Origin: a virus
Lineage: Duplodnaviria > Heunggongvirae > Uroviricota > Caudoviricetes
Length of the DNA: 46,219 bases
Virus record (IMG/VR): IMGVR_UViG_2706794662_000004
Strand: one strand, 5' to 3'
The notes beneath the pieces were generated by a model. It had not been told where the DNA came from. It did no database searches and worked only from the letters and a program-made list of their open reading frames with translations. Positions 246 through 46,219 of this stretch are shown here, piece after piece. Position 1 is the first letter of the stretch, and every line of letters starts with the position of its first letter. The translations under genes and the position numbers were made by a program.

Positions 246-2159
246 ATGAGCAAAGTAAAAATCGGTGAATTAATAAACTCACTTGTTAGCGATGTTGAGT
301 CAATAGATAACTCTGACCGTCCTCAAGGGGAAAAAACAAAAAAAATAAAGGCTGTTGCATTAAAATTTAAAAATGCATTATTTAATGACAAGCGAAAGTT
401 TAGGGGGAAAGGATTAGAAAAAAGAATTACAGCCAACACATTCAATGCCTATATGAGCAGGGCCAGAAAACGGTTTGATGATAAACTTCATCATAGCTTT
501 GAAAAAAATATACATCGCCTATCTGAAAAGTATCCTTTATATAATGAGGAGCTATTGTCATGGCTTTCTCTACCTGCTGCCGATATTCGCCAGAGAATGT
601 CAACTTTACAGGCAAAATTAAAATTAATTCTCCCTTTATCAGAAGATTTATCTAATATCAGAATTGGTGATAACAAAAATCATAATAAGTTATTAAAATT
701 ATCAAATAAATATAAAGAGTGGCAATTCGCAATTTCTGATTTAACTAGCGATAACTGGAAAGATAAGCGCGATTATTTATATAAATTACTACAGCAAGGA
801 TCTGCCTTGCTTGAGGAGTTGAATCAGCTAAAAGTTAACCATGAGATTCTCTATCATCTTCAACTAAGCCCTGCCGAACGCGCATCTATCCAGCAACGAT
901 GGGCGGACGTTCTGCACAATAAGAAACGTAACGTGGTGGTCATTGATTACCCTAAATATATGCAAGCTATTTACGATATTATAAATAGCCCTGCTACATT
1001 AAATAATCTAAACACTCGTTCAGGTATGGCTCCTTTGGCATTTGCACTTGCTGCATTGTCAGGAAGACGAATGATTGAGATTATGTATCAAGGTACATTT
1101 ACTGTTTCTGGTAAGTATACCGTTGATTTTTTAGGCCAAGCTAAAAAAAGAACTTCTGATGATATAACCAGAAAAATATATACATTATGCGAAGCAAAAA
1201 CATTTGTTTATTTAATAAATGTACTTCGCTCATGCCCAGCAGCATCTGATTTTGATGATGTCGTTAAAGGTTATGGAGATAACGACACACGCTCTGAAAA
1301 CGGACGTATTAATGCCATATTAGCAAAGGCTTTTAACCCGTGGGTTAAATCATTTTTCAAAGATGACCGCCGTGTTTATAAAGATAGTCGTGCTATTTAT
1401 GCCCGTATTGCGTATGAAATGTTTTTCCGCGTAGATCCTCGTTGGAAAAACGTAGATGAGGATGTTTTCTTTATGGAAATTTTAGGCCATGACGATGAAA
1501 ACACTCAATTACACTATAAGCAATTCAAGCTGGCCAACTTCTCAAAGACATGGAGGCCAAATACTGGAAACGAAAATACCAGGCTGGAAGCATTGCAGCA
1601 GCTTGATGACGAAATGCCTGGATTCGCCAGAGGAGATGCCGGGGTTCGTCTGCATAACACAGTTAAGCAGCTGGTAGAGCAGGACCCCTCTATAAAAATC
1701 ACGAACAGCACTCTAAGAGCATTCAAATTTAGCCCAACAATGATTAGCCGATACCTGGAATTTGCTGCTGATGCTCTGGGGCAATTTGTTGGCGAAAATG
1801 GACAATGGCAGCTGAAAATAGATACTCCAGAAATCGTTATGCCTGACGAAGAAGAGCTGGAAGCAATACCTGAACAGACGGATGAATTATCAGATGATGA
1901 CGATCTGGATGACGACGAAATTGAGATAGAGGAAGAGGAAGAGGAAGAGGAAGAGGAAGAGGAAGAGAGCGTAGAAGAACAGCAACCGCCCGCGCCTTCT
2001 TCACCTGTATCTAAGCCGGTATTTAAGCCTGTGAGAAATATTGGTGATGGTTCATACGTTGTTGAGTTTCATTATAATGGCCAGAATTATGCTTGGTCCG
2101 GCAGTGCAAACAGCCCTATGTCAGCAATGCAGTTAGCATGGCTGACATATTTCGGATAA
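246..2159 (+). CDS. telN: Protelomerase (telomere resolvase) TelN
   Basis: 637-aa ORF whose N-terminus (MSKVKIGELIN...) and conserved blocks (e.g. RSGMAPLAFALAA, RAIYARIAYEMFF, KQFKLANFS) match my recollection of N15 TelN; it sits next to the telomere palindrome. Confidence 0.9.
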   Translation: MSKVKIGELINSLVSDVESIDNSDRPQGEKTKKIKAVALKFKNALFNDKRKFRGKGLEKRITANTFNAYMSRARKRFDDKLHHSFEKNIHRLSEKYPLYNEELLSWLSLPAADIRQRMSTLQAKLKLILPLSEDLSNIRIGDNKNHNKLLKLSNKYKEWQFAISDLTSDNWKDKRDYLYKLLQQGSALLEELNQLKVNHEILYHLQLSPAERASIQQRWADVLHNKKRNVVVIDYPKYMQAIYDIINSPATLNNLNTRSGMAPLAFALAALSGRRMIEIMYQGTFTVSGKYTVDFLGQAKKRTSDDITRKIYTLCEAKTFVYLINVLRSCPAASDFDDVVKGYGDNDTRSENGRINAILAKAFNPWVKSFFKDDRRVYKDSRAIYARIAYEMFFRVDPRWKNVDEDVFFMEILGHDDENTQLHYKQFKLANFSKTWRPNTGNENTRLEALQQLDDEMPGFARGDAGVRLHNTVKQLVEQDPSIKITNSTLRAFKFSPTMISRYLEFAADALGQFVGENGQWQLKIDTPEIVMPDEEELEAIPEQTDELSDDDDLDDDEIEIEEEEEEEEEEEEESVEEQQPPAPSSPVSKPVFKPVRNIGDGSYVVEFHYNGQNYAWSGSANSPMSAMQLAWLTYFG

Positions 2160-2760: not shown

Positions 2761-2921
2761 GGTATGCACTCCGTTTAATTGGTCGTGCTACCACCAGAGT
2801 TCCTACGCTCTATATGGCGGTAGCCCAGACGGGGGTAGGAATACCGGTAAACGAAGAAACCGGCCAGCTAAAAGCTGCCCCATCTGAGCCACCATAAATT
2901 TGGTGTACGCAGATTTTACAC

Positions 2922-3000
2922 ACAAAAAAACACGCAGGCGCGTGTTGTGCGCTTCATTTACTCGGGTTCCTACGCCCGGCTACGGGATTTACCGTAGCGG
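2922..3000 (-). ncRNA. Candidate c4/CI-like antisense immunity RNA (about 75-80 nt) with its own promoter and intrinsic terminator
   Basis: Minus strand has TTGACG -35 (about 3030-3035), a TAAAGT-like -10, then a 6-bp stem (acacgc/gcgtgt) with 4-nt loop followed by seven U (plus 2924-2946). The RNA contains gcgtaggaac, which recurs in the leader just upstream of the Icd-like RBS (plus 2799-2808). Confidence 0.3.
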
Positions 3001-3135
3001 AGTAACTTTACCGTCAAAACGACGCGCACGTCAATAATTTGCAAAGGCATTTTACCCCGTGACCAGTCACGGGGACAGGTGTTTTTATAGTTTGCTTAAA
3101 CGAGTGTTCAGAAGTTGATCGTTAATCAAAGGCCA

Positions 3136-3423
3136 TTACTGATTAAGAGATTGGAAATACCTAACTAACTTACCGGCATCATCACATTTTTCTTTATCTT
3201 CTTCCTTAACATAGCCGCGACAAAAGGCTGAATAAAATTTTGCATTTTCAGAAGCAAAAGCAGCCGTCGAAAGGAGCAGTTCTTTGCATGATTCTTTTGA
3301 TGCAGCATCGGGATTATTTTTACATGCAAGCTCTGCTGATGAGTCAATAACAGAAATGCTATCTTCCTGGGCATAAACCGCAGCAGAAAAGGCAAAACAT
3401 AAAACAAAAATAAAACTCTTCAC
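3136..3423 (-). CDS. Small secreted protein with four Cys (95 aa), unknown function
   Basis: N-terminal signal peptide MKSFIFVLCFAFSAAVYA-QE; AT-rich coding sequence. Confidence 0.55.
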   Translation of the reverse strand: MKSFIFVLCFAFSAAVYAQEDSISVIDSSAELACKNNPDAASKESCKELLLSTAAFASENAKFYSAFCRGYVKEEDKEKCDDAGKLVRYFQSLNQ

Positions 3424-4179: not shown

Positions 4180-4371
4180 TTACTCCCCGTTCACCGAAAA
4201 ATCACGATAGAAACGTTTCCACATACGATAAGTCTGCGCGAGTTGTTCACCACGAAACATCGCCTTCCTGGCCTTCATGTTTTCCTTGTGAGACTTTCGA
4301 TCTATGAACCAAAACCATTGCTGGAACACACAAAGCAAGAGACACAAAGATAATATCCACTGATTACCCAT
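4180..4371 (-). CDS. Small membrane protein (63 aa) translationally coupled to repA
   Basis: Internal Met (MGNQWILSLCLLLCVFQQWFWF...) whose ATG at 4371-4369 overlaps the repA stop codon; the longer 102-aa reading overlaps repA by 125 nt. Confidence 0.35.
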   Translation of the reverse strand: MGNQWILSLCLLLCVFQQWFWFIDRKSHKENMKARKAMFRGEQLAQTYRMWKRFYRDFSVNGE

Positions 4372-7300
4372 AGAAAGCGCCCTGCTCTTCGTAGCTGCAT
4401 GAGCTATTCCCGGTAATGTATTCTCGTAACCGCCGCAGTTCATTGCTGGACAAGTGATCCATGAACTCTGTGAGGTACAGAGATGCAAACGTCATAGCTA
4501 TGCTGGTTGATGACCATGATGACATAGTGGCCAGCTCCTCACCGGAAAGCGCACTCATCGCCCAGGACTCAGGAACAGCCACCGGCAATACGGCCAAAGC
4601 CTCAGAAATTACTGAATGAGGGGCGTTTTGAACCTGCTCGTTTGTGGATCGCGTTTTATCATCCATATATATATTGAGATCCAAATCGCGATCCATTTCG
4701 ATGGCTGTCTTCTCGGCTTTACGCGTTTTTAGGGTTAGGCCATCTTTCTGACGCTGAACAAGAATATCCAGCATAAATGCCGCTGATTCAGGCTCAACAA
4801 AACGCAAGGTTGGACGCTTATCGCCGTCTCTGCCGCGACGTTTACCTGTTTTAAGGCCAAGAGAGTCGCAAATGTTTTTAAACAACGCTTCCGGCACTTT
4901 AGGCTTCCCTTTTGGCGTCATAAAACCACCAATGTGCAGAACGTTATTCAACAGGTCACGGCGTTCGGCTGTCATGAGATTATCTCGAGCGAATTTGAGA
5001 CGCTCCTGAGTCGCCTCGCCGGTCATAGTCTCAGGGTTGATACCGCAGTCGATAAAGTACTGCCGGAGAGTTGCTGATTTAAGCGCATAGAAACCGCGCG
5101 CCCCGACTTCAACAGTAGGAGTAGCTTTTACCTTGTGATCGATTATTCCAGGGAATTTAGTTTTAAAGACATCATCAGCCTGCTCGCGAGTCATCGCGGT
5201 CACTACAAAATATTGCCACTGTCCCGCCTGACGGTATGCGTAGGTAAAATTGATGGCTGCTTCTTCCCGGTCGTAACGACGAGCTGTTACCTCATCTAAA
5301 AGCATTGTTTCATAGCGGCGAACTTTGTCTCGAGCACCATCGAAATAGAATTTCAGTGTGCCTTCTTCAACCGGTAGTTTCAGTTCGTTTTCAATATCCC
5401 AGCGGACAAGTTTTGCCTGTTCTTCAAGCGTCAGCGCGCGTTTTTTTAGCAGTTCTTCACGCTCTGATTCTTGTGGAGTTTCTGTATTGAGGTGCAGATC
5501 CAGTGTCTGTTCCCACACAATATCCCGCGCTTCTTTACGCAGATCTTTACCGATATCATTCGCAGCATAATCGGTGCCCAGCGGCGATACCTTATAACCG
5601 TCGCTGTGCATGATGCAGATCATGTTGCTGGCGTAGTCGTTACGCGCAGTCGCTTCAATTGCGGCTGCTTTAATTTTCATCCTGGTAAAGTCGGTATTGG
5701 CCACCCCCATTGATATACGGTCGCCATCGAAAATGACATCCGTCAGTTCACCGTTCATACCTGCGGTAGCAAGCAATGCCTGGGCGAATGCTCGTTCTAT
5801 TTTTTGCGGGTCAGTTTCACGTTTTGCACGAGCTTTATCAAAGCCGATAATAAATTCTTTTGCTGTACGGTCGCGGCGTAGCATTTGCACTGCGTCGCTG
5901 GGTACAACTTCACCACAGAACATGCCGAAATGACGGTCAAAATGTTTTTGCTCAATCGACACGCCGGATGAAATAGACGGGCTATAAATCAGGCCGTCGT
6001 ATTTTTTGACCATCTTTTTCGGTTGATTGGTAAATGCTTCAACTTCTGGCTCTGGTTTGTTTTTCTGGTTTACACACAGAAATTTCTTACCAGGAAAATG
6101 CATTCTCAGGGTGGCTGTCACATCTTCTGCAAAGGTGGAGCTGTCGGTGGCCAACATGATTTTTTCGCCATCCGATACAGCTTTCACCACCTCGGTCATG
6201 ATGCGATCTTTTTCTGTATAAAAAACCCGGATTGGCTCACCTGTTTCGCGGTTGCGAACATCAACAGGTAATTCAATTACGTGGATCTGCAGCCATGCCG
6301 GTAAACCTAGTTCTTCACGGCGTTTCATAGCCAGTTCAGCCAGGTCAACCAGCAGATCGTTCGCATCAGCATCCACCATGATTGGGTGTTGTTCCGTTCT
6401 GGCCAGCGCGTCAATTAGCGTATTGAATACAGCCACCGGGTTTTCCATAGCCCGACCGGAAAGAACGGCACGTAGCCCTTGTGTGGCCTCGTCAAAGCCA
6501 AAATAGTCGTGCTGGCGCATCAACGGTTGCCAGCAGTTTTTAACAATCGAGTTTATGCAGATGGTCAGTTTACTGGCGTATGGAGCCATTTCCTGATAGC
6601 CAGGGTCCTGATAGTGCAGGATATCGGCTTTTACACCTTTTCCTTCAGTCATCATTTCCCACAGGCCACCAATAAGGGAAACACGGTGAGCTACAGAGAT
6701 ACCGCGTTCTGAGCTATGCATTAACGGTCGTAACAATCCAGTAGATTTGCCGGAACCCATACCAGCACGAACGATGACGATCCCCTGTAGTGATTGCACG
6801 TACTTCAGGACGTCATCGGTCATTACCGAAGTTTCAAAACGCTTATAGGTGATATGTTGAGGGCGTTTATTGGGATCAGTTATGCGTTCGCTGAAAGAGC
6901 GCGGAGCCTGGGCAATACGGCACTTTTTATTCAGGCGACGGGCAATGTGGTCTTTTACCGTAGCGCGATAGATATTTTCCAGCCCCATTTCACGCAGAAC
7001 GATGCAGAACATGTTAAACAAATCTGACGGACTGTTAGGAACCGGACAGGTTAGCATGCCAATATCCACCGCTCTCAGCAGCTCTTTGGCAAAAGTACGA
7101 CGGTTATCCCGCTTAATTGTCTTCAGGCGGTTGAGCGTCAGAGATAGCAAATCAGTGCCGGTTTTCAGGCGGTTTGCTGTTGCAAATAGTTGACGTGCTG
7201 TTTCACGAAGTCCACGTAGTTTGTGCAGGTCGTTGAAGTCACTGCACTCCATTTGCGGATCGTCTTCAAAAGTTGGATAGACGCAGCGGACATCGTTGAA

Positions 7301-8359
7301 TTTCGATAAGATTTCATAGCCAGTCCGCAGGCCGGTATTCCCTTTTCCTTCTGTGGCTGATTTCCGGTCATTATCCAGTGCGCAGGTGATTTTTGCCGCC
7401 GGGTACATGTTTACCAGTTGTTCCACAACATGAACCATGTTGTTAGCGGATACAGCGACAACCACAGCGTCAAAGCGTTTATCTTTTTTCGTGGCAAGCC
7501 AGATGGATGCACCAGTAGCAAAACCTTCTGTAACAGCGATGTTTTGCGCCCCTTTCAGCTCACCGATAACAAAGCAGGCACCGACGAAATCGCCGCTGGT
7601 TACTGCGCTGGTCTGGTATTTCCCACCTTGTTTGTCGATTCGCTGCCAACCCACAATACGACCATCGTAACGACCGTCCAGGTGAGCCAGAGGGATAGCC
7701 ATATATGTGGTTGGCCCCCGGTTCCATTTCGCACTGTCGTGACTGGTCACGCGACGCACATCACATGAACTAAAAACGTCACGAATACCTTTTTTAATCG
7801 CATATGGCCATGAGCCGTCTTCTGCAGGAGCATGTTCCCACGCGCTGTGGAATGCCAGCCATCCCAGCAAACGTTCATGGTCCATTTGGTTGTTTTTCAG
7901 GTCATTAATTCGTTTTTGTTCTTCACGGCGACGACGTGCTTCGGCCTGACGTTTTATTCTTGCCCGTTCTTCTTCCGGTTGTGCGACCACGGTCGCATTA
8001 TTCCGTTGTTGCTCACGGCGATATTCAGAAAACAGGAAGGAGAAACCGCTCCATGAGCCAGCATCGCTGCCTTTATGGACGAAGTTAATGAACGGGTAAT
8101 CAATCCCTTTGCTGTGTTCCAGCCGAGAGTAAATTTCTACGCGTCCTTTGAGGCTCTTTTCGAGAGCTTCTGGAGATGTTTTATTGTATGAAGAGTAACG
8201 CTCAACACCCCCGCGAGGGTTGAGTTGGATGTTGTCGGAACAGGCAGACCAGTTGATACCAGCCATCTGTGCCAGCTCGGTTAGTTCATCCCGTGCTGCT
8301 TCAATTAGCGAGAACGGATCGCTGCCAAAGCGATCCGCATAGAAATCGTTTAATGTCAT
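4364..8359 (-). CDS. repA: Multifunctional replication protein RepA (primase-helicase, 1331 aa)
   Basis: Size close to N15 RepA (about 1324 aa as I recall); Walker A GMGSGKST in the central helicase part; position upstream of the cB immunity region as in N15. Confidence 0.85.
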   Translation of the reverse strand: MTLNDFYADRFGSDPFSLIEAARDELTELAQMAGINWSACSDNIQLNPRGGVERYSSYNKTSPEALEKSLKGRVEIYSRLEHSKGIDYPFINFVHKGSDAGSWSGFSFLFSEYRREQQRNNATVVAQPEEERARIKRQAEARRRREEQKRINDLKNNQMDHERLLGWLAFHSAWEHAPAEDGSWPYAIKKGIRDVFSSCDVRRVTSHDSAKWNRGPTTYMAIPLAHLDGRYDGRIVGWQRIDKQGGKYQTSAVTSGDFVGACFVIGELKGAQNIAVTEGFATGASIWLATKKDKRFDAVVVAVSANNMVHVVEQLVNMYPAAKITCALDNDRKSATEGKGNTGLRTGYEILSKFNDVRCVYPTFEDDPQMECSDFNDLHKLRGLRETARQLFATANRLKTGTDLLSLTLNRLKTIKRDNRRTFAKELLRAVDIGMLTCPVPNSPSDLFNMFCIVLREMGLENIYRATVKDHIARRLNKKCRIAQAPRSFSERITDPNKRPQHITYKRFETSVMTDDVLKYVQSLQGIVIVRAGMGSGKSTGLLRPLMHSSERGISVAHRVSLIGGLWEMMTEGKGVKADILHYQDPGYQEMAPYASKLTICINSIVKNCWQPLMRQHDYFGFDEATQGLRAVLSGRAMENPVAVFNTLIDALARTEQHPIMVDADANDLLVDLAELAMKRREELGLPAWLQIHVIELPVDVRNRETGEPIRVFYTEKDRIMTEVVKAVSDGEKIMLATDSSTFAEDVTATLRMHFPGKKFLCVNQKNKPEPEVEAFTNQPKKMVKKYDGLIYSPSISSGVSIEQKHFDRHFGMFCGEVVPSDAVQMLRRDRTAKEFIIGFDKARAKRETDPQKIERAFAQALLATAGMNGELTDVIFDGDRISMGVANTDFTRMKIKAAAIEATARNDYASNMICIMHSDGYKVSPLGTDYAANDIGKDLRKEARDIVWEQTLDLHLNTETPQESEREELLKKRALTLEEQAKLVRWDIENELKLPVEEGTLKFYFDGARDKVRRYETMLLDEVTARRYDREEAAINFTYAYRQAGQWQYFVVTAMTREQADDVFKTKFPGIIDHKVKATPTVEVGARGFYALKSATLRQYFIDCGINPETMTGEATQERLKFARDNLMTAERRDLLNNVLHIGGFMTPKGKPKVPEALFKNICDSLGLKTGKRRGRDGDKRPTLRFVEPESAAFMLDILVQRQKDGLTLKTRKAEKTAIEMDRDLDLNIYMDDKTRSTNEQVQNAPHSVISEALAVLPVAVPESWAMSALSGEELATMSSWSSTSIAMTFASLYLTEFMDHLSSNELRRLREYITGNSSCSYEEQGAFYG
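7982..7997. promoter_or_regulatory. 16-bp perfect palindrome TGCGACCACGGTCGCA, candidate SopB centromere site (copy 1, inside repA)
   Basis: Exact palindrome, one of five copies; resembles the F sopC core TGGGACCACGGTCCCA. Confidence 0.5.
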
Positions 8360-8604: not shown

Positions 8605-9201
8605 TCATCTACCCTCAACCATGAATGATTTGATCGTTCCGACTATTTGGTGAACAAATTCAAGATCGCTTTTCCTGAAGATGGCGCGTTGTGAATTTGT
8701 TCCGTCCAGATAGTAATTTTCATCATCAAAACGGGCCAGGCGCTGGATGGTGATATTTCCTGCAGTATCACGAACCAGAACATCCTCGCCGGGGACCAGT
8801 TCCAGCGCAGAATCGACCAGGAGAAAATCGCCAGGCTGATAGTTTCCCTGCGCCAGATTGCTGATAGTTAACGCATAAACAGTATTGCGCTGGCTGATGA
8901 ATGGCAGGAATCGCTCAGTATTTGGAACCTGTCCTGGCTTCCACTCTTCATCAGGTCCACTTTCAGTTGTGCCAATAACAGGAATGCGATCAGGGTCATA
9001 TTCTGTCCCATACAGCACCCAATGCACTGGCTTGCGTAAGCATTTAGCCAGGGCAATACCTATCTCCAGTGACGGCATTACGTCGCCACGTTCTAAGTTT
9101 TGGACGCCTGCAATAGAGATATCGACAGCCTCAGCAACTTCTCGCAACGTCAGCTTCATCTCTAAACGGCGTGCTTTCAGTCGTTCGCCTCGTGTTTTCA
9201 T
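8605..9201 (-). CDS. cB: Prophage repressor CB (HTH plus S24 LexA/CI-like autopeptidase domain)
   Basis: 198-aa ORF with N-terminal HTH (LTLREVAEAVDISIAGVQNLERG) and a C-terminal CI/LexA-like domain; divergent from a cro-like gene across an operator region. Confidence 0.85.
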   Translation of the reverse strand: MKTRGERLKARRLEMKLTLREVAEAVDISIAGVQNLERGDVMPSLEIGIALAKCLRKPVHWVLYGTEYDPDRIPVIGTTESGPDEEWKPGQVPNTERFLPFISQRNTVYALTISNLAQGNYQPGDFLLVDSALELVPGEDVLVRDTAGNITIQRLARFDDENYYLDGTNSQRAIFRKSDLEFVHQIVGTIKSFMVEGR

Positions 9202-9223: not shown

Positions 9224-9264
9224 TTATAGCTGGCTATAAAATTTATTTATTATAGCTGGCTTTA
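9224..9264. promoter_or_regulatory. Operator/promoter region between cB and cro with repeated TTATAGCTGGCT sites
   Basis: ttatagctggctataa (9224-9239, near-palindrome) and ttatagctggcttta (9250-9264) in the divergent intergenic region. Confidence 0.5.
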
Positions 9265-9292
9265 ATTGTTGTTTATTGTTTATAATAACAAC

Positions 9293-9514
9293 ATGAAACC
9301 AGAAGAACTTATTCGCCACTTTGGCAGTGTAGAAAAAGCAGCGGCAGGGGTAGGTGTAACACCCGGAGCTGTTTACCAATGGTTAACCGCTGGAGAGATT
9401 CCTTCATTGCGGCAAAGCGATATTGAAGTTCGTACTGCTTATAAGCTGAAGAGTGACTTTACAACTCGGCGGGTAAAGCAGTCGATTAAGGAGAGTCGTA
9501 AGCGTGGAGCTTGA
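9293..9514 (+). CDS. cro: Cro-like HTH regulator
   Basis: Small ORF divergent from cB with HTH GVTPGAVYQWL; start taken at ATG 9293 (MKPEELIRHF), the track start at 9266 being a TTG. Confidence 0.6.
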   Translation: MKPEELIRHFGSVEKAAAGVGVTPGAVYQWLTAGEIPSLRQSDIEVRTAYKLKSDFTTRRVKQSIKESRKRGA

Positions 9515-10214
9515 GTATATACGCAGCTGCGTCTCTACGGCATTGGCTGATGTTCATTATCGCCAGCGTGGCATTCTGGAGGTCCAGCTTGAGCAGATGC
9601 GTCTCGGTAGATCAGGACGGTTTAACAATAAACCAGTCCGGTCAATCAGTGTGGGGGATGATAACTCATACGAAGTGTCCGTTCCTGCTGAGCCGGTTAG
9701 ATTCCACCAGGGGAAAACATTTAAACAATCATCAATGTTGCTCACTGATATTGATTTTCAGAGCGCCAGCTGGCGCAGGGCTATTGGTCAGTTGAATAAC
9801 GAGGAATCAGCCTGGCTTTATTATTGCTACGGATGCAAGCCTGATTACAACAATGATGTGATTGTTTGTCAGTGGTTATGGCTTGATTTTCTGGTTGCTC
9901 ATTCGGGGGGCGGCTTTAAAAAAATGAAGGCCTCCACGAAAAAAGCCATGCGGAAATTGATTTATTACGCGGCACAGCAGGTTAAATCAGAACTTACGTG
10001 TGCTGAGGCAGTTGATGAGAGAGAACAGGACAGGCATCTGAGTCTTCTACTGAATATATCTATTGATAGCTGGAGACAAGATTATAAAGAACGCTGGCTT
10101 TTAATTAAGTCGCGATGTCTGAGCTTAAATCGAACTGCATTATTAAATGCGGCGGAGAAGCGCAGTGAAATCATCAAACGCCATCGGGCAGGAAGTGCCA
10201 TTCTGCCTTTGTAA
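9504..10214 (+). CDS. Putative late-gene regulator (Q antiterminator position), 236 aa
   Basis: Positional inference only: third gene of the cB-cro-Q arrangement reported for N15 immB; no motif confirmed by eye. Confidence 0.3.
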   Translation: MELEYIRSCVSTALADVHYRQRGILEVQLEQMRLGRSGRFNNKPVRSISVGDDNSYEVSVPAEPVRFHQGKTFKQSSMLLTDIDFQSASWRRAIGQLNNEESAWLYYCYGCKPDYNNDVIVCQWLWLDFLVAHSGGGFKKMKASTKKAMRKLIYYAAQQVKSELTCAEAVDEREQDRHLSLLLNISIDSWRQDYKERWLLIKSRCLSLNRTALLNAAEKRSEIIKRHRAGSAILPL

Positions 10215-11693: not shown

Positions 11694-11983
11694 TGAATAT
11701 CGACACCACGATAACGATCGATACGGCCCTAAATACCGGTCTGGCACTTCTCGGTTGGCTTTACATCATGTCCCGTGCATGGCGATGGCTTGGTTCCATT
11801 TTTCTAAAACAGTGGAAAAAACGGCGCAAACAGGAGAGACGCCAGAAAGCGTTAGAGGCGTTCTATGACGCATTTGAACTTAGCCGCATTGAGCCTGGAA
11901 CAACAGCCAGGATAGCGACAAAAGGTGACCTGATGATAGTGATGTTCCGACAGGAGAGAGCAGAGAAAGGAGAATCAGCATGA
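11693..11983 (+). CDS. Small membrane protein (96 aa)
   Basis: GTG start overlapping the previous stop; hydrophobic segment LNTGLALLGWLYIM followed by a basic stretch. Confidence 0.45.
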   Translation: MNIDTTITIDTALNTGLALLGWLYIMSRAWRWLGSIFLKQWKKRRKQERRQKALEAFYDAFELSRIEPGTTARIATKGDLMIVMFRQERAEKGESA

Positions 11984-12639
11984 AATTTTCCAAATTTTCT
12001 GAGTTGGTGAATCGCATTTTGTCCAACAACCATAGCCATCATCGCGATATGGATGTAACGATCGTTGTTCATTCGCCTGGTCGCATCGGTTCAACACCAT
12101 CAGTTGAGGTTCAGTCAATTCAGGCGGGTTTTGATTGGGATTCCGGGAAAGTGCTTATTTTCCCAGCACAGCCACTGACCACGCTAACACCAGAACAGAT
12201 TACTGATATTACTGATAGTGTGCGCAAAGGTCAGTCTTGGCACGCATATCAGGAATATAAAAAGCATAAAGAGCAGTTGGAAAAATTGTCGATTGAACTG
12301 GATGCTGCAAAACAGCGCGTAGCAGAACTGGAAGCCAAACCTGTAAGCCAAACTTACAAGTTAACTTTTGAGCAATGGCTGGAACAGCAGCATGACAAAA
12401 TTGATGTTGATTGTGGATGTGTAAGTACTGAAATGTTTATGCACTGGATAAGGGTCGCGTATGAGGCTGGCAACTCTCCGGTAACTCCGGATGGTCATGT
12501 TCAGTTTTCTGTTTCACTTCCTGCAGCGTTTGGTGGAGATAAATATTTTATTGATGGTGTATTTCAACCTTTGAGATATGAGCGTGACTGTGAAAAAGCG
12601 GTTGTGGCCGCTGGCGGTGTAGTTAATTGGGTTAAGTAA
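11980..12639 (+). CDS. Hypothetical protein (219 aa)
   Basis: ORF coupled to the upstream gene; no recognisable motif. Confidence 0.55.
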   Translation: MKFSKFSELVNRILSNNHSHHRDMDVTIVVHSPGRIGSTPSVEVQSIQAGFDWDSGKVLIFPAQPLTTLTPEQITDITDSVRKGQSWHAYQEYKKHKEQLEKLSIELDAAKQRVAELEAKPVSQTYKLTFEQWLEQQHDKIDVDCGCVSTEMFMHWIRVAYEAGNSPVTPDGHVQFSVSLPAAFGGDKYFIDGVFQPLRYERDCEKAVVAAGGVVNWVK

Positions 12640-12654
12640 TTTTCAGGAGGATTT

Positions 12655-12981
12655 ATGGCGCTGACACCGGCAGAACGGCAAAGGAGACGCAGGGAACGGT
12701 TGAAGAAGGAAGGCACATCAAGACGGGACTGGATTTTGGAGCCTGACGAGTTACGTATGTTGGGGGAAATTTGTGTATTGCGTAGACCAGGGCGAGTTCC
12801 ATATTCGGAGAACGAAGTCATTGGTTTGCTGATCAGGAAAAACTATAAGGAGCTGCAGAAGCAGCTATCTACTACTTGCCCGCGATGTGGTCAAAAAATG
12901 CCTGTTTCAGAATGCATTTTTGATGGCGAAGGGTCATGCCACCTTACAACCACGAGGCTGAAACTTGCGCTCAAAGCGTGA
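12655..12981 (+). CDS. Hypothetical protein with basic N-terminus and CxxC ... C ... C motif (108 aa)
   Basis: ORF with AGGAGG RBS; Arg-rich N-terminus; CPRCGQ ... SECIFDGEGSCH. Confidence 0.5.
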   Translation: MALTPAERQRRRRERLKKEGTSRRDWILEPDELRMLGEICVLRRPGRVPYSENEVIGLLIRKNYKELQKQLSTTCPRCGQKMPVSECIFDGEGSCHLTTTRLKLALKA

Positions 12982-12999
12982 CTGGTCACGGAGGGATAA

Positions 13000-13242
13000 A
13001 TGGATAAAAAGGCATTGCTTTTTGAAATGATACGAAAACGGAGCGAAAAGAGCTTTTCTGATGGTGGTGATGGGTTTGTTTTCGCTTCTATGCTTGCTTT
13101 TGATGTTGGGTTAAATAGCAGAATTGTTAAAAGGATGCTTGATTCTGCTGTCCGTGATGGGCTTTTGGAAGTGGTTGGGCGAGGAGTAGGAAGGGAACAT
13201 AAGTATCGGACTACAAAGATATTTAACCAGTTAATCTATTGA
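13000..13242 (+). CDS. Hypothetical protein (80 aa)
   Basis: ORF with GGAGGG RBS. Confidence 0.5.
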   Translation: MDKKALLFEMIRKRSEKSFSDGGDGFVFASMLAFDVGLNSRIVKRMLDSAVRDGLLEVVGRGVGREHKYRTTKIFNQLIY

Positions 13243-13243
13243 A

Positions 13244-13286
13244 AGTTGGCTATAAAATTTGAGTTTTACCCTGTAATTTTATACAG
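13244..13286. promoter_or_regulatory. CB-operator-like site (gttggctataaaattt) plus LexA box CTGT-N8-ACAG (13271-13286) upstream of a small gene
   Basis: tggctataaaattt matches the cB/cro operator repeat at 9231-9244; ccCTGTaattttatACAGta matches the LexA consensus TACTGT-N8-ACAGTA at 17/20. Confidence 0.55.
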
Positions 13287-13310
13287 TATCAAATAACCTT
13301 TTTTAATTAA

Positions 13311-13529
13311 ATGGTATTAGATTCAATGACTGAAGCACCTGTATCAACTCTTGAAGAACTCGGATCAAACCTAAAAGACATCGACGCCGTTTTGGATCTG
13401 GTTAGCGTTGCTCTGGCTTCTCCAGAAGCCAGCTTGCATCTTGGCGAGATTTCACGACTTGTTAGTATGTCGCGGGAGATTGCTCAGAATTGCCAACAAG
13501 TTATTGCTGTTGAGTGTTTACATCATTGA
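13311..13529 (+). CDS. Small acidic protein (72 aa), candidate SOS-inducible antirepressor (AntC-like by position)
   Basis: First ORF downstream of the LexA box and operator-like site; no recognisable domain; start uncertain (ATG 13311 or 13326). Confidence 0.35.
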   Translation: MVLDSMTEAPVSTLEELGSNLKDIDAVLDLVSVALASPEASLHLGEISRLVSMSREIAQNCQQVIAVECLHH

Positions 13530-13572
13530 TATACACCCCGCCCTTCTGGACGGGGTAGCGAAAAGGGTCTAA

Positions 13573-13860
13573 TCAATAGACGGCATTAATATTAATCGTT
13601 GCACCGCATGCTTGGGCATATTTTGATAAAGTTTTCATGCTTGCCCCTAAAGGATTGCTTTCCAGGCGGCTGATAGCTGACGGGCGCAATCCCATTCGTT
13701 CAGCCAGAGCTGACTTCGTTAAACCTGCTCTTTCCCTCATTTCGTATAACATTTCGACCATCTCCAGCTCTTTATCGGCCTCTTCATATCCTTTGATGGC
13801 TTCTGGAGTGTTGAGAAGTTTTTCTTTTACTTCGTTAAACGGGATGCCTTTCGCTTTCAT
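13573..13860 (-). CDS. HTH (XRE-family) antitoxin, HigA-like
   Basis: 95-aa ORF with HTH (LTKSALAERMGLRPSAISRLE) directly downstream of and overlapping a RelE/HigB-like toxin ORF. Confidence 0.65.
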   Translation of the reverse strand: MKAKGIPFNEVKEKLLNTPEAIKGYEEADKELEMVEMLYEMRERAGLTKSALAERMGLRPSAISRLESNPLGASMKTLSKYAQACGATININAVY

Positions 13861-14171
13861 CAGTTCATCTCCTTCAGGCGAGTTCTGGCGATTTCGATAG
13901 CCTTCACCGGTGTTTTCTGTGTCTTTTTTACAAATGCATGCAATAGATAAATTTCGTTACCAGTCGCGTAGGCGTACAGCGTTCTTGCGATGTTTTTATC
14001 CCCTACTCGTAGTTCAAAAAGCCCTCCACCTATTACACGGCTATGGGGCATCTTCAGTTTGTTGCCTTCTTTCTCCAGTCGCTCAATTAATCTGGTCATG
14101 CGACCTCGCAAATCATCTGGTAGTTCAAGCAGTTCATCCAGTGCTGCAGGGTGGGTTATCACGTTAAACAT
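13860..14171 (-). CDS. RelE/ParE-superfamily toxin (HigB/Gp49-like)
   Basis: 103-aa ORF; toxin-first gene order with overlapping start/stop to the HTH antitoxin; sequence resembles the phage Gp49/HigB-like family as I recall it. Confidence 0.6.
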   Translation of the reverse strand: MFNVITHPAALDELLELPDDLRGRMTRLIERLEKEGNKLKMPHSRVIGGGLFELRVGDKNIARTLYAYATGNEIYLLHAFVKKTQKTPVKAIEIARTRLKEMN

Positions 14172-14229
14172 ATTATAGCCTCCATATCCATAAAATACAC
14201 CAAAACAAGAAAACAGCGCAAATTAAAAA

Positions 14230-14247
14230 TTTCACTAAAAAGTGAAA
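14230..14247. promoter_or_regulatory. Perfect inverted repeat tttcactaaaaagtgaaa in the toxin-antitoxin promoter region (candidate autoregulatory operator)
   Basis: 7-bp arms with 4-bp spacer about 60 bp upstream of the toxin start. Confidence 0.4.
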
Positions 14248-14336
14248 AATAACACTGGATGTGTTCGTTTGGCAGAGTTACAGTTCGTGTCATTGAGGGG
14301 CAATAACCAACTAACTATATGAATTTGGAGGATATT

Positions 14337-14558
14337 ATGAATTATCAAGGTAACGAAAAAATGCGCGACGACGTTGCGGAGATAGCTAACGAACTGTATG
14401 AGTTGTGGAAGAAGGTTGAACGTTTCGAAAAGGAATATGGTTTCAACAGTACCAACCTAGCAGACCGACTGGCTGGTCGCTTAGTTGGGACTATGGGGCC
14501 AAAACTGGCTGAGTTGAACCGCTTTATGGCTGATGTTGATTTCCAGTTTCAAGATTGA
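14337..14558 (+). CDS. Hypothetical protein (73 aa)
   Basis: ORF with GGAGG RBS before ATG 14337 (track start 14319 is upstream of the RBS). Confidence 0.45.
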   Translation: MNYQGNEKMRDDVAEIANELYELWKKVERFEKEYGFNSTNLADRLAGRLVGTMGPKLAELNRFMADVDFQFQD

Positions 14559-20604: not shown

Positions 20605-24285
<3,681 letters not shown>

Positions 24286-28420: not shown

Positions 28421-28812
28421 AACATACTGAACTCCGAGCAGCCGTACTGGATGCACTGGAGAAGCATGACACCGGGGCGACGCTTTTTGATGGTCGCCCC
28501 GCTGTTTTTGATGAGGCGGATTTTCCGGCAATTGCCGTTTATCTCACCGGCGCTGAATACACGGGCGAAGAGCTGGACAGCGATACCTGGCAGGCGGAGC
28601 TGCATATTGAAGTTTTCCTGCCTGCTCAGGTGCCGGATTCAGAGCTGGATGCGTGGATGGAGTCCCGGATTTATCCGGTGATGAGCGATATCCCGGCACT
28701 GTCAGATTTGATCACCAGTATGGTGGCCAGTGGCTATGACTACCGGCGCGACGATGATGCGGGCCTGTGGAGTTCAGCCGATCTGACGTATGTCATTACC
28801 TATGAAATGTGA
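28417..28812 (+). CDS. U: Tail terminator protein U
   Basis: 131-aa ORF coupled to Z; lambda order. Confidence 0.8.
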
Positions 28813-30414: not shown

Positions 30415-32968
30415 ACCGGTAGGCGATCTGGTCGTTGATTTGAGTCTGGATGCGGCCAGATTTGACGAGCAGATGGCCAGAGTCAGGCGTCATTTTTCCG
30501 GTACGGAAAGTGATGCGAAAAAAACAGCGGCAGTCGTTGAACAGTCGCTGAGCCGACAGGCGCTGGCTGCACAGAAAGCGGGGATTTCCGTCGGGCAGTA
30601 TAAAGCCGCCATGCGTATGCTGCCTGCACAGTTCACCGACGTGGCCACGCAGCTTGCAGGCGGGCAAAGTCCGTGGCTGATCCTGCTGCAACAGGGTGGT
30701 CAGGTTAAGGACTCCTTCGGCGGGATGATCCCCATGTTCAGGGGGCTTGCCGGTGCGATCACCCTGCCGATGGTGGGGGCCACCTCGCTGGCGGTGGCGA
30801 CCGGTGCGCTGGCGTATGCCTGGTATCAGGGCAACTCAACCCTGTCCGATTTCAACAAAACGCTGGTCCTTTCCGGCAATCAGTCGGGGCTGACGGCAGA
30901 TCGTATGCTGGTCCTGTCCAGAGCCGGGCAGGCGGCAGGGCTGACGTTTAACCAGACCAGCGAGTCACTCAGCGCACTGGTTAAGGCGGGGGTAAGCGGT
31001 GAGGCTCAGATTGCGTCCATCAGCCAGAGTGTGGCGCGTTTCTCCTCTGCATCCGGCGTGGAGGTGGACAAGGTCGCTGAAGCCTTCGGGAAGCTGACCA
31101 CAGACCCGACGTCGGGGCTGACGGCGATGGCACGCCAGTTCCATAACGTGACGGCGGAGCAGATTGCGTATGTTGCTCAGTTGCAGCGTTCCGGCGATGA
31201 AGCCGGGGCATTGCAGGCGGCGAACGAGGCCGCAACGAAAGGGTTTGATGACCAGACCCGCCGCCTGAAAGAGAACATGGGCACGCTGGAGACCTGGGCA
31301 GACAGGACTGCGCGGGCCTTCAAATCCATGTGGGATGCGGTGCTGGATATTGGTCGTCCTGATACCGCGCAGGAGATGCTGATTAAGGCAGAGGCTGCGT
31401 TTAAGAAAGCAGACGACATCTGGAATCTGCGCAAGGATGATTATTTTGTTAACGATGAAGCGCGGGCGCGTTACTGGGATGATCGTGAAAAGGCCCGTCT
31501 TGCGCTTGAAGCCGCCCGAAAGAAGGCTGAGCAGCAGACTCAACAGGACAAAAATGCGCAGCAGCAGAGCGATACCGAAGCGTCACGGCTGAAATATACC
31601 GAAGAGGCGCAGAAGGCTTACGAACGGCTGCAGACGCCGCTGGAGAAATATACCGCCCGTCAGGAAGAACTGAACAAGGCACTGAAAGACGGGAAAATCC
31701 TGCAGGCGGATTACAACACGCTGATGGCGGCGGCGAAAAAGGATTATGAAGCGACGCTGAAAAAGCCGAAACAGTCCGGCGTGAAGGTGTCTGCGGGCGA
31801 TCGTCAGGAAGACAGTGCTCATGCTGCCCTGCTGACGCTTCAGGCAGAACTCCGGACGCTGGAGAAGCATGCCGGAGCAAATGAGAAAATCAGCCAGCAG
31901 CGCCGGGATTTGTGGAAGGCAGAAAGTCAGTTCGCGGTACTGGAGGAGGCGGCACAACGTCGCCAGCTATCCGCACAGGAGAAATCCCTGCTGGCGCATA
32001 AAGATGAGACGCTGGAGTACAAACGCCAGCTGGCTGCACTTGGCGACAAGGTTACGTATCAGGAGCGCCTGAACGCGCTGGCGCAGCAGGCGGATAAATT
32101 CGCACAGCAGCAACGGGCAAAACGGGCCGCCATTGATGCGAAAAGCCGGGGGCTGACTGACCGGCAGGCAGAACGGGAAGCCACGGAACAGCGCCTGAAG
32201 GAACAGTATGGCGATAATCCGCTGGCGCTGAATAACGTCATGTCAGAGCAGAAAAAGACCTGGGCGGCTGAAGACCAGCTTCGCGGGAGCTGGATGACAG
32301 GCCTGAAGTCCGGCTGGAGTGAGTGGGAAGAGAGCGCCACGGACAGTATGTCGCAGGTAAAAAGTGCAGCCACGCAGACCTTTGATGGTATTGCACAGAA
32401 TATGGCAGCGATGCTGACCGGCAGTGAGCAGAACTGGCGCAGCTTCACCCGTTCCGTGCTGTCCATGATGACAGAAATTCTGCTTAAGCAGGCAATGGTG
32501 GGGATTGTCGGGAGTATCGGCAGCGCCATTGGCGGGGCTGTTGGTGGCGGCGCATCCGCGTCAGGCGGTACAGCCATTCAGGCCGCTGCGGCGAAATTCC
32601 ATTTTGCAACCGGAGGATTTACGGGAACCGGCGGCAAATATGAGCCAGCGGGGATTGTTCACCGTGGTGAGTTTGTCTTCACGAAGGAGGCAACCAGCCG
32701 GATTGGCGTGGGGAATCTTTACCGGCTGATGCGCGGCTATGCCACCGGCGGTTATGTCGGTACACCGGGCAGCATGGCAGACAGCCGGTCGCAGGCGTCC
32801 GGGACGTTTGAGCAGAATAACCATGTGGTGATTAACAACGACGGCACGAACGGGCAGATAGGTCCGGCTGCTCTGAAGGCGGTGTATGACATGGCCCGCA
32901 AGGGTGCCCGTGATGAAATTCAGACACAGATGCGTGATGGTGGCCTGTTCTCCGGAGGTGGACGATGA
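30407..32968 (+). CDS. H: Tail tape measure protein H (853 aa)
   Basis: Same length as lambda gpH; position after G-T. Confidence 0.9.
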   Translation: MAEPVGDLVVDLSLDAARFDEQMARVRRHFSGTESDAKKTAAVVEQSLSRQALAAQKAGISVGQYKAAMRMLPAQFTDVATQLAGGQSPWLILLQQGGQVKDSFGGMIPMFRGLAGAITLPMVGATSLAVATGALAYAWYQGNSTLSDFNKTLVLSGNQSGLTADRMLVLSRAGQAAGLTFNQTSESLSALVKAGVSGEAQIASISQSVARFSSASGVEVDKVAEAFGKLTTDPTSGLTAMARQFHNVTAEQIAYVAQLQRSGDEAGALQAANEAATKGFDDQTRRLKENMGTLETWADRTARAFKSMWDAVLDIGRPDTAQEMLIKAEAAFKKADDIWNLRKDDYFVNDEARARYWDDREKARLALEAARKKAEQQTQQDKNAQQQSDTEASRLKYTEEAQKAYERLQTPLEKYTARQEELNKALKDGKILQADYNTLMAAAKKDYEATLKKPKQSGVKVSAGDRQEDSAHAALLTLQAELRTLEKHAGANEKISQQRRDLWKAESQFAVLEEAAQRRQLSAQEKSLLAHKDETLEYKRQLAALGDKVTYQERLNALAQQADKFAQQQRAKRAAIDAKSRGLTDRQAEREATEQRLKEQYGDNPLALNNVMSEQKKTWAAEDQLRGSWMTGLKSGWSEWEESATDSMSQVKSAATQTFDGIAQNMAAMLTGSEQNWRSFTRSVLSMMTEILLKQAMVGIVGSIGSAIGGAVGGGASASGGTAIQAAAAKFHFATGGFTGTGGKYEPAGIVHRGEFVFTKEATSRIGVGNLYRLMRGYATGGYVGTPGSMADSRSQASGTFEQNNHVVINNDGTNGQIGPAALKAVYDMARKGARDEIQTQMRDGGLFSGGGR

Positions 32969-39543: not shown

Positions 39544-39571
39544 AGCCCGCCGGTTCAGGCGGGCTTTTTTG
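39544..39571 (+). terminator. Intrinsic terminator after lom
   Basis: gcccgccggttcaggcgggc hairpin followed by six T. Confidence 0.5.
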
Positions 39572-39581
39572 TGGGGGGAAT

Positions 39582-42980: not shown

Positions 42981-43555
42981 TGGCATTCAGAATGAGTGAA
43001 CAACCACGGACCATAAAAATTTATAATCTGCTGGCCGGAACTAATGAATTTATTGGTGAAGGTAACGCATATATTCCGCCTCATACAGGTCTGCCAGCAA
43101 ACAGTACCGATATTGCACCACCAGATATTCCTGCTGGCTTTGTGGCTGTTTTCAACAGTGATGAGGCATCGTGGCATCTCGTTGAAGATCATCGGGGTAA
43201 AACGGTTTATGACGTGGCTTCCGGCGACGCGTTATTTATTTCTGAACTCGGTCCGTTACCGAAAAATGTTACCTGGTTATCGCCGGAAGGGGAGTTTCAG
43301 AAGTGGAACGGCACAGCCTGGGTGAAGGATACGGAAGCAGAAAAACTGTTCCGGATCCGGGAGGCGGAAGAAACAAAAAACAACCTGATGCAGGTAGCCA
43401 GTGAGCATATTGCGCCGCTTCAGGATGCTGTAGATCTGGAAATCGCAACAGAGGAAGAAACCTCGTTGCTGGAAGCTTGGAAAAAGTATCGGGTGTTGCT
43501 GAACCGTGTTGATACATCACTATCTCCAGATATCGAGTGGCCAAGTCAACCATAA
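42980..43555 (+). CDS. tfa: Tail fibre assembly protein Tfa
   Basis: [28 protein letters not shown] matches recalled lambda Tfa. Confidence 0.85.
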
Positions 43556-45994: not shown

Positions 45995-46132
45995 CCTTAC
46001 AAATATAAGAACACAAATACAGAACATAAAAACCAAGTAATAACACAAACACAATAAAGAACACAAATAAAGAATTAAAACAAATGTTAAACAAAACAGT
46101 ACGCAAACTGAGAACATTACATTAAATAAGAA
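45995..46132. repeat. Cluster of AGAACA(C/T)-type direct repeats next to the right telomere
   Basis: At least six copies of agaaca within about 140 bp; the left telomere-proximal region (110-160) carries the complementary tgttct motif. Confidence 0.4.
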
Positions 46133-46218
46133 CACTAATTAAGAACATAACGAAACATAATTCCCCATTATACGCGCGTATAATGGGGAATTATGTTTCG
46201 TTATGTTCTTAATTAGTG
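46133..46218. repeat. Right telomere palindrome (hairpin telR read through the turn); centre at 46175/46176
   Basis: 86-bp perfect palindrome sharing the same 40-bp core as the left end but with different outer arms. Confidence 0.7.
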
Positions 46219-46219
46219 T

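Follow-up and report, generated by a model that had tools for sequence, protein, structure and literature searches.

The closest described system is that of coliphage N15, in which induction begins with antC, a LexA-controlled gene whose product acts against the prophage repressor CB. AntC was reportedly described by Mardanov and Ravin in 2007 (J Bacteriol 189:6333) as a LexA-controlled antirepressor of CB, and we take the published gene to lie between genes 47 and 48 of that phage. The same phages have a second route against CB, the immA locus, a c4-type antisense RNA with AntA/AntB that is similar to immI of P1. This second route differs in its control, which is exerted by antisense RNA and not by LexA, and in its proteins, which are unrelated.

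A remote homologue of AntC is found in Yersinia phage PY54, where 'AntA' (ORF57, 87 aa, annotated as an antirepressor) is linked to it with an hhalign probability of 95% (E 3e-8, 25% identity). The slot of the PY54 gene is likewise the one that precedes a convergent toxin-antitoxin gene and a late methylase, and a strong LexA box (GACTGTATACATATACAGTA) precedes its operon. However, a DinI-like ORF56 comes after the LexA box and ahead of the antirepressor, as in the Gifsy phages, whereas the locus described here has no dinI at that point. The prophages Gifsy-1/2/3 carry the directly LexA-repressed small proteins GfoA, GftA and GfhA, encoded outside the immunity region, which bind a non-cleavable repressor and strip it from DNA (Lemire et al. 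2011, PMC3121763). These proteins share the logic of AntC and are analogues of it, having been likened to AntC by description, but they belong to lambdoid integrated prophages and are expressed from an operon with the order dinI-antirepressor-irsA. LexA-controlled antirepressors are also present in P2-like phages, as Tum of 186 and TumA of PSP3, with a perfect SOS box just upstream of tumA. In these cases, a DinI-like domain either is part of the same protein as the antirepressor or comes after it, PSP3 TumA being the antirepressor half of a split tum gene in a 186-like phage. A homology between AntC and PSP3 TumA was considered and discarded (hhalign probability 0.15%), so that TumA is to be seen as an analogue and not as a member of the family.

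The DNA analysed here is a stretch of 46,219 nucleotides from a virus of the Caudoviricetes (IMG/VR record IMGVR_UViG_2706794662_000004), referred to below as the window. A first-pass annotation, made from the letters alone, had proposed that a small gene in it, preceded by a LexA box and by a site resembling the operators of the prophage repressor, would be an SOS-triggered antirepressor under dual control. The main idea of that proposal is correct and concerns known biology: the antC of the window is one more orthologue in a system already described, and the dual control is unsupported. The useful additions are a corrected start codon, a view of the family's breadth, the occurrence of a two-allele cassette and the absence of any annotation in the public databases.

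The prophage and its relatives

The linear plasmid prophage contained in the window is N15-like and complete (Table 1). Long fold-back palindromes centred on TATACGCGCGTATA are found at both ends of the window, as would be expected from hairpin telomeres that have been read through. The RNA part of immA is present in the form of a C4 RNA and an isrK-like RNA. As for the proteins of that region, the only ORF tested (3136-3423) was rejected as an AntC homologue, with no match to the AntC profile. The same ORF has a hydrophobic N-terminus that resembles a signal peptide.

The Escherichia phages YDC107_1 and PhiR46_1 are 93.6-93.8% identical to the window over positions 12600-14400, an interval in which Klebsiella phage phiKO2 shows 78% identity. 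Over the longer stretch of 8.6-16 kb, the identity between the window and YDC107_1 is 97-100%, apart from a single block at about 13100-13690 that contains the small gene.

Table 1. Coordinates of the features of the window that are considered in the text
Feature	Position	Strand	Remarks
telN	246-2159		
C4 RNA	2813-2899		
isrK-like RNA	2925-2998		
repA	4364-8359	-	
cB	8605-9201	-	prophage repressor, presumed target of AntC
OR3	9224-9239		identical to N15 OR3
OR2	9250-9265		close to an N15 operator annotated in U45242
cro	9266-9514		
OR1	9273-9288		close to an N15 operator annotated in U45242
Q	9504-10214		
Divergent 'antC cassette'	13100-13690		3' part of gp47-like gene, promoter, antC, 3' end of antitoxin gene
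CB-operator-like 16-mer TGAAAGTTGGCTATAA	13240-13255		resemblance to OR3
Putative -35 of antC promoter, TTGAGT	13259-13264	+	read from the sequence
LexA (SOS) box CCCTGTAATTTTATACAGTA	13269-13288		core CTGT-N8-ACAG at 13271-13286; LexA matrix and conservation
Putative -10 of antC promoter, TACAGT	13282-13287	+	within the right half of the LexA box; read from the sequence
Alternative in-frame start (72 aa)	13311	+	
Conserved GGTA	13313-13316	+	possible weak Shine-Dalgarno sequence, 9 nt before ATG 13326
Predicted antC orthologue, 67 aa (MTEAPV...CLHH)	13326-13529	+	tblastn, phrogs, dN/dS, model
Imperfect hairpin CCCCGCCCTTCTGGACGGGG	13536-13555		separates antC from the antitoxin gene convergent with it; possible weak bidirectional terminator

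Orthology and synteny with the presumed N15 antC

Comparison of the small ORF by tblastn revealed an N15 ORF with 57% identity over 68 aa (2e-17), the match running over 39604-39807 and the ORF over 39619-39831. Genes 47 and 48 lie on either side of this ORF, for which the two N15 records have no annotation. The comparison also gave matches to phiKO2 Gp47 and to Klebsiella telomere phages. The N15 genome has only two strong LexA boxes, one of them before this small ORF, in the same register as the box of the window, and the other before the umuD-like gene 26. From the reported position of the gene, from this count of two boxes and from the literature, we equate the N15 ORF with the published antC.

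The surroundings of the gene are also those of N15, with gp46 and gp47 homologues on the upstream side and, downstream, a Gp49/HTH toxin-antitoxin pair in convergent orientation. In this slot, common to the window, N15, phiKO2 and YDC107_1, the gene is preceded by cB-cro-Q and the gp46/gp47 homologues and followed by the convergent toxin-antitoxin genes and a late methylase. When 1.8 billion proteins were searched with a profile, seven remote homologues were detected, all of them in N15-type backbones and in the same position. The likeness to the N15 system thus comprises the phage type, the genomic slot, the CB family (78% identity between the two repressors), the register of the box and a protein that is 52-57% identical. 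On the other hand, the window allele has divergent N- and C-termini, it is preceded by an OR3-like sequence that N15 lacks, and the N15 gene is followed by a stronger terminator hairpin. Orthology, synteny, the LexA box of N15 and the literature support the idea that the gene encodes an antirepressor triggered by SOS, as in N15. In terms of its sequence, the ORF is very probably an orthologue of N15 antC, which would encode a small, acidic, two-helix antirepressor repressed by LexA and acting on CB.

The gene and its product

The small gene had originally been placed at 13311, with a product of 72 aa. The gene is real, and its conserved start is the second ATG, at 13326, which gives 67 aa. In the allele of YDC107_1 and PhiR46_1, the ATG equivalent to 13311 is followed by GTA TGA, that is, by a stop after two codons, and phiKO2 and NAR688 show CTG or CGG at this position. 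The start at 13326 is common to all of them, and a length of 67 aa is also annotated in PhiR46_1, YDC107_1 and phiKO2. A GGTA motif upstream of this start is kept in six lineages, even in those without the first ATG or with a stop after it.

As had been noticed from the translation, the protein is acidic, with a pI of 4.4-4.5 and 10-11 D+E against 3 K+R. The remark that it has no recognisable domain holds for Pfam, where no match was obtained, but not for the phrogs collection: the product is a full-length member of phrog_6301 (3.6e-36), a family of unknown function, and it also matches phrog_10889 'anti-repressor' (1.4e-6), as does every member of the family tested. Values of dN/dS of 0.19 (against YDC107_1) and 0.26 (against N15) indicate that antC is a real gene under purifying selection. 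Seven AntC sequences from six lineages, two of them from the window's own clade, have 26 invariant residues, and their invariant core can be written as D-x-DAVLD-x-VS...SPEASLH...RL..MSR...C. An AlphaFold2 model of the protein predicts a two-helix hairpin (H8-30 and H39-66) with a pLDDT of 86.5. Comparison with the sequences of solved structures gave a best E of 0.02, with irrelevant matches only, and a Foldseek search of the model against the PDB and viral structures returned generic helical hairpins, none of them below E = 1. A viral contig collection that was scanned with two of the remote homologues yielded no match. The identical AntC protein is found on at least 1000 contigs. In the protein databases, searched by name and by cluster, no member is called AntC and all of them appear as 'hypothetical protein'.

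The LexA box and the putative promoter

The exact core CTGT-N8-ACAG that had been pointed out upstream of the small ORF is present, although the whole box matches the consensus TACTGTATATATATACAGTA at 15/20 positions and not at the 17/20 first given. The box, first placed about 25 bp upstream of the ATG at 13311, ends 22 bp before it, but this ATG is not the conserved start. Exact copies of the core occur twice in the window, against 0.42 expected, and the second one, at 32459, ranks under the eight top matches to a LexA matrix. This matrix was symmetrised from 21 E. coli sites known from the literature, with a training-site range of 13-27 bits, and it is approximate. With a score of 20.45 bits, the box is mid-range among real E. 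coli sites, and in the 46 kb scanned it is the sole site above 12 bits, the runner-up reaching 11.5 bits.

The best sites of 200 mononucleotide shuffles, with a mean of 12.0 bits, reached a maximum of 19.96, below the score of the box but near it. If the weakness of the core promoter is also considered, the box could be a palindrome that arose by chance in AT-rich DNA between genes, in which case the ORF would be expressed by early-operon read-through only. This explanation seems scarcely credible, given that no other site of the window exceeds 12 bits and that the box is found at the same place in 17 of the 18 lineages or alleles examined, with divergent flanks. In an alignment of the upstream region from six lineages (the window, YDC107_1, Enterobacter phage MStein-2023a, N15, phiKO2 and Klebsiella phage NAR688), the LexA box is the most conserved block. 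The invariant blocks correspond to the TTG of the -35, to TGT..TT.TATACAGTAT (box plus -10), to GGTA and to the second ATG, and the remainder varies. A perfect CTGT-N8-ACAG lies upstream of six of the seven remote homologues, and no recognisable LexA box was found upstream of one remote relative (L036).

The putative -35 and -10 elements are separated by a spacer of 17 bp and match the consensus at 8/12 positions, a modest figure that explains why a simple promoter scan made no call here. The putative -10 is invariant in 6/6 aligned lineages, and the TTG of the -35 is in register with the TTGCGG, TTGCGA, TTGCCA and TTGCAT sequences of N15, phiKO2, NAR688 and the remote relatives. From the -35 to the LexA box (about 13257-13289), the two alleles described below differ by 1 base, inside a cassette that is 81-84% identical. 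As the putative -10 falls inside the right half of the box, bound LexA would cover both the spacer and the -10. Judged by its score and its conservation, this is a real LexA box, which would overlap a weak sigma-70 promoter.

The CB repressor and its operators

The CB protein of the window contains an HTH_3 domain and a sub-threshold match to Peptidase_S24. In a weak alignment with LexA, both Ser119 and Lys156 are opposite an Ala of CB. According to published reports, neither the cleavage site nor the Ser/Lys pair is present in the CB proteins of N15 and phiKO2, and the N15 repressor is not proteolysed. From its sequence, the CB of the window also appears unable to cleave itself, a condition under which SOS induction would need an antirepressor.

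This need bears on the question of whether the gene, even if induced by the SOS response, could have a role different from antirepression, either as an SOS/RecA modulator like DinI or as an accessory of a toxin-antitoxin system. The antirepressor function of the protein is assigned from sequence and by analogy, and a CB without self-cleavage would leave it a clear task. The PY54 homologue is co-transcribed with a DinI-like gene, but AntC has no similarity to DinI. A toxin-antitoxin module adjoins the gene in many relatives, but it is convergent and variable (Gp49/HTH, HicAB or none), whereas the small gene is retained together with its LexA box. Moreover, the N15 literature gives this phage group a LexA-controlled antirepressor, and the other strong box of N15 precedes umuD. 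A function other than antirepression is, in our opinion, very unlikely.

The operators OR1-OR3 sit between cB and cro. The pattern T-A-N10-T-A is obeyed by all five N15 operators and by the three OR operators of the window, and every operator of N15 and phiKO2 for which binding has been reported shows it. Half-sites of OR3 were bound by neither CB nor Cro in EMSA. The real OR/OL operators overlap the annotated -35 and -10 elements. As for the repressor, the CB of phiKO2 has been described as having a 'rather low binding specificity' and as forming tetramers or octamers.

Two alleles of the antC cassette

Between the window and YDC107_1, the antC cassette shows 81-89% identity and its flanks 97-100%, which indicates that two antC alleles exist on one backbone. 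The CB proteins that accompany the two alleles are 99.5-100% identical, and OR3 and its flank are the same. Both alleles are found in complete E. coli genomes, on plasmids only.

On the 3' side of the gene, the imperfect hairpin is kept in the YDC107_1 allele and has no T-run, its fold z-score (-0.83) is not significant, and a terminator scan made no call after antC. Stronger hairpins are found at the same place in N15, MStein-2023a and NAR688. Upstream, no convincing terminator was found on the + strand in the interval from cro to antC.

A sequence resembling a CB operator

The operator motif gttggctataaaattt that had been noticed beside the box is indeed present, and its resemblance to the sites between cB and cro is real. 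A stretch of 14 nucleotides (TGGCTATAAAATTT, 13247-13260) is an exact copy of the right half of OR3 and five flanking bases (9231-9244), for which 0.02 occurrences were expected. The 16-mer TGAAAGTTGGCTATAA agrees with OR3 at 13/16 positions, the sole match outside immB with three mismatches or fewer, its right half-site being perfect and the left one (TGAAAGT) matching at 4/7. With a matrix made from five experimentally bound N15 operators, the site scores 13.7 bits, which is more than the real operator OL1 (12.9 bits) and places it fifth among 46,204 positions, after OR3, OR2, OL2 and OR1. It is also the best site among 691 windows of 130 bp outside immB. One could propose from these figures that CB, or Cro, which binds only OR3, acts on this site and co-regulates antC with LexA, a dual control that could take the form of an extra lock on basal expression or of activation from just upstream of the -35. 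The repressor would in this way be coupled directly to the antirepressor that counteracts it.

The position and the make-up of the site do not fit this proposal well. The 16-mer reads GA-N10-TA, so the TA expected on the left is replaced by GA and T-A-N10-T-A is broken. As mentioned above, half-sites of OR3 were bound by neither CB nor Cro. The stop codon of the preceding gp47-like gene takes up positions 1-3 of the 16-mer and constrains its left half. The site ends at 13255, 3 bp before the -35 (13259), with its centre near -47, and it does not overlap the core promoter. The low specificity of phiKO2 CB and its assembly into tetramers or octamers might still allow a weak and distant site to be used cooperatively. 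However, the sister allele of YDC107_1 and PhiR46_1, in spite of its nearly identical CB and its identical OR3 and flank, shows TGAAAATTGACCGTAA at this position, with 9/16 matches to OR3, and the best score of the operator matrix in its whole upstream region is 7.1 bits. The difference between the alleles at the site is that of GGCTATAA in the window and GACCGTAA in YDC107_1. The same matrix detected no comparable site in any other lineage compared, N15 included, and the N15 literature other than the primary antC paper does not describe a control of antC by the repressor.

Several lineages have a loosely conserved GTTGGCYRTA-like element at this position, and therefore few substitutions would suffice for a resemblance to OR3. 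Another possible role for the 14-mer, as the minus-strand -35 (TAGCCA) that it provides for cB in OR3, was discarded, there being no -10 at the right distance upstream of antC. With a broken pattern, a position off the core promoter and no counterpart in either the sister allele or N15, the claim that dual control by LexA and the prophage repressor is the signature of the locus is not supported, and we consider such control unlikely. Most likely, the operator-like sequence is a chance-sharpened resemblance built on a loosely conserved element and not a working CB operator. This dismissal is a judgement rather than a demonstration, the site being statistically unusual.

It is improbable that in one E. 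coli N15-like sub-lineage the antC promoter has gained a working OR3-type site, either by a few substitutions or by gene conversion from OR3. If this were true, the binding of CB or Cro just upstream of the -35 would make the promoter of the antirepressor respond to the state of the immunity switch. N15, 186 and the Gifsy phages have no described repressor-antirepressor feedback loop of this sort, and the sister allele, in which the site is lacking, would be its natural control.

A proposed pathway for SOS induction

The most likely pathway for this prophage is that of a LexA-repressed antirepressor acting on CB. In the lysogen, the host LexA would sit on its box, covering the spacer and the -10, and antC would be silent. 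DNA damage would activate RecA and lead to the self-cleavage of LexA, after which antC would be transcribed. The resulting AntC, as suggested by the N15 literature and by its sequence, would bind CB without proteolysis. CB would then leave OR1-3 and OL, and the derepression of cro, Q and repA would open the way to lytic growth. Finally, since antC lies on the same strand as the cro-Q early operon and downstream of it, with no convincing terminator between them, read-through from PR would reinforce the process, amplifying AntC once induction is under way.

Implications for N15-type prophages

The presence of two antC alleles together with the same CB offers a natural experiment, which could be used to map the AntC residues that contact CB and to learn the effect of the operator-like site. 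At the level of the family, SOS induction through a LexA-repressed antirepressor would be general across N15-type prophages, including those of E. coli, Enterobacter, Klebsiella and Yersinia and their metagenomic relatives. Giving a name to this family, that is, to phrog_6301 together with the branch of the PY54 'AntA', would allow a better prediction of which plasmid prophages are inducible by DNA damage.

Alleles of the antC cassette and apparent completeness of the replicon

The window and YDC107_1 share 97-100% identity over 7.6 kb surrounding the antirepressor gene antC, whereas a block of ~590 bp within this region (window 13100-13690) shows only 81-89%. Besides antC and the antC promoter, this divergent block contains the 3′ ends of the two neighbouring genes, the gp47-like gene on one side and the antitoxin gene on the other. 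Among complete E. coli genomes, the window-type allele was found on 6 plasmids and the other allele on 11. Another divergent patch with respect to YDC107_1, of smaller size, maps to window positions 11700-12099.

Among N15-like phages, different toxin-antitoxin modules can replace one another in the position convergent with antC. Modules of the Gp49/HTH (Tad-Ata) type occupy this position in the window, N15 and the relative L033, and HicA/HicB modules do so in L032 and L034, while in PY54 HicB is annotated alone. Among the relatives examined, L030, L036 and L037 lack a toxin-antitoxin module beside antC.

Both window ends consist of long perfect fold-back palindromes, as expected when the assembly of a linear plasmid prophage runs on through its hairpin telomeres; the window thus appears to be a complete replicon. 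The sequence at the palindrome centres, CCATTATACGCGCGTATAATGG, is a telO-like core.

Features outside the antC cassette of the window. LexA sites were scored with an approximate E. coli LexA-site matrix and operator-like sites with an N15-operator matrix
Feature	Genome	Position	Strand	Bits	Remark
Fold-back palindrome, centre CCATTATACGCGCGTATAATGG	Window	1-108
Fold-back palindrome, centre CCATTATACGCGCGTATAATGG	Window	46112-46219
C4 antisense RNA	Window	2813-2899	-	73.6	Rfam
isrK-like RNA	Window	2925-2998	-	62.8	Rfam
Operator-like 16-mer TTATAGTTTGCTTAAA	Window	3085-3100		13.3	Just upstream of C4/immA region
95-aa ORF	Window	3136-3423	-		Hydrophobic, signal-peptide-like N-terminus (VKSFIFVLCFAFSAAVYAQ...)
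CTGT-N8-ACAG, CTGTCCATGATGACAG	Window	32459-32474			Second exact match; inside long ORF
IS009, full-length match	Window	43323-43521	+	224.5	Rfam
Strongest N15 LexA box	N15	21658-21677		24.8	Precedes umuD-like gene 26
Operator-like 16-mer TTATAGTTTGCTTTAC	N15	28576-28591		15.5	Just upstream of C4/immA region
16-mer TTATATACAGTATTAA	N15	39570-39585		12	Fits T-A-N10-T-A operator rule
LexA box, dinI homologue, AntC-family gene	PY54	9278-9865			In this order

Other LexA-type and operator-type sites

Neither the strongest LexA box of N15 nor the umuD-like gene 26 that follows it has an equivalent in the window. The second exact CTGT-N8-ACAG of the window is a chance match; it has a GC-rich spacer, is located within a long ORF and has a LexA-matrix score under those of the eight best window hits. 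In N15, the 16-mer TTATATACAGTATTAA shares bases with the right half of the LexA box of antC; its agreement with the operator rule is probably fortuitous in AT-rich DNA.

In PY54, the LexA box, dinI homologue and AntC-family gene follow the same operon layout as in Gifsy prophages. The latter gene is recorded as 'antA', a name that invites confusion with the unrelated AntA protein of N15.

The Rfam IS009 match of the window adjoins the sopB-like gene.

The immA-type anti-immunity region

The C4 and isrK-like RNAs, located between telN and repA, are the RNA part of an anti-immunity module of the N15 immA/P1 immI type. In N15 this module includes a large antB-like gene, which seems to be missing from the window. 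The 95-aa ORF of the same interval gave no match in a Pfam search and, when compared with AntC and PY54 AntA, showed no relation to either; it may be a cargo gene, and Klebsiella telomere phages carry telocins in their telN-repA interval. The operator-like 16-mer close to the C4/immA region is conserved between the window and N15, where it outscores the CB operators OR1 and OL1, and could be an undescribed CB operator of the immA promoter. The immA-type module represents a second route against CB, which is independent of LexA.
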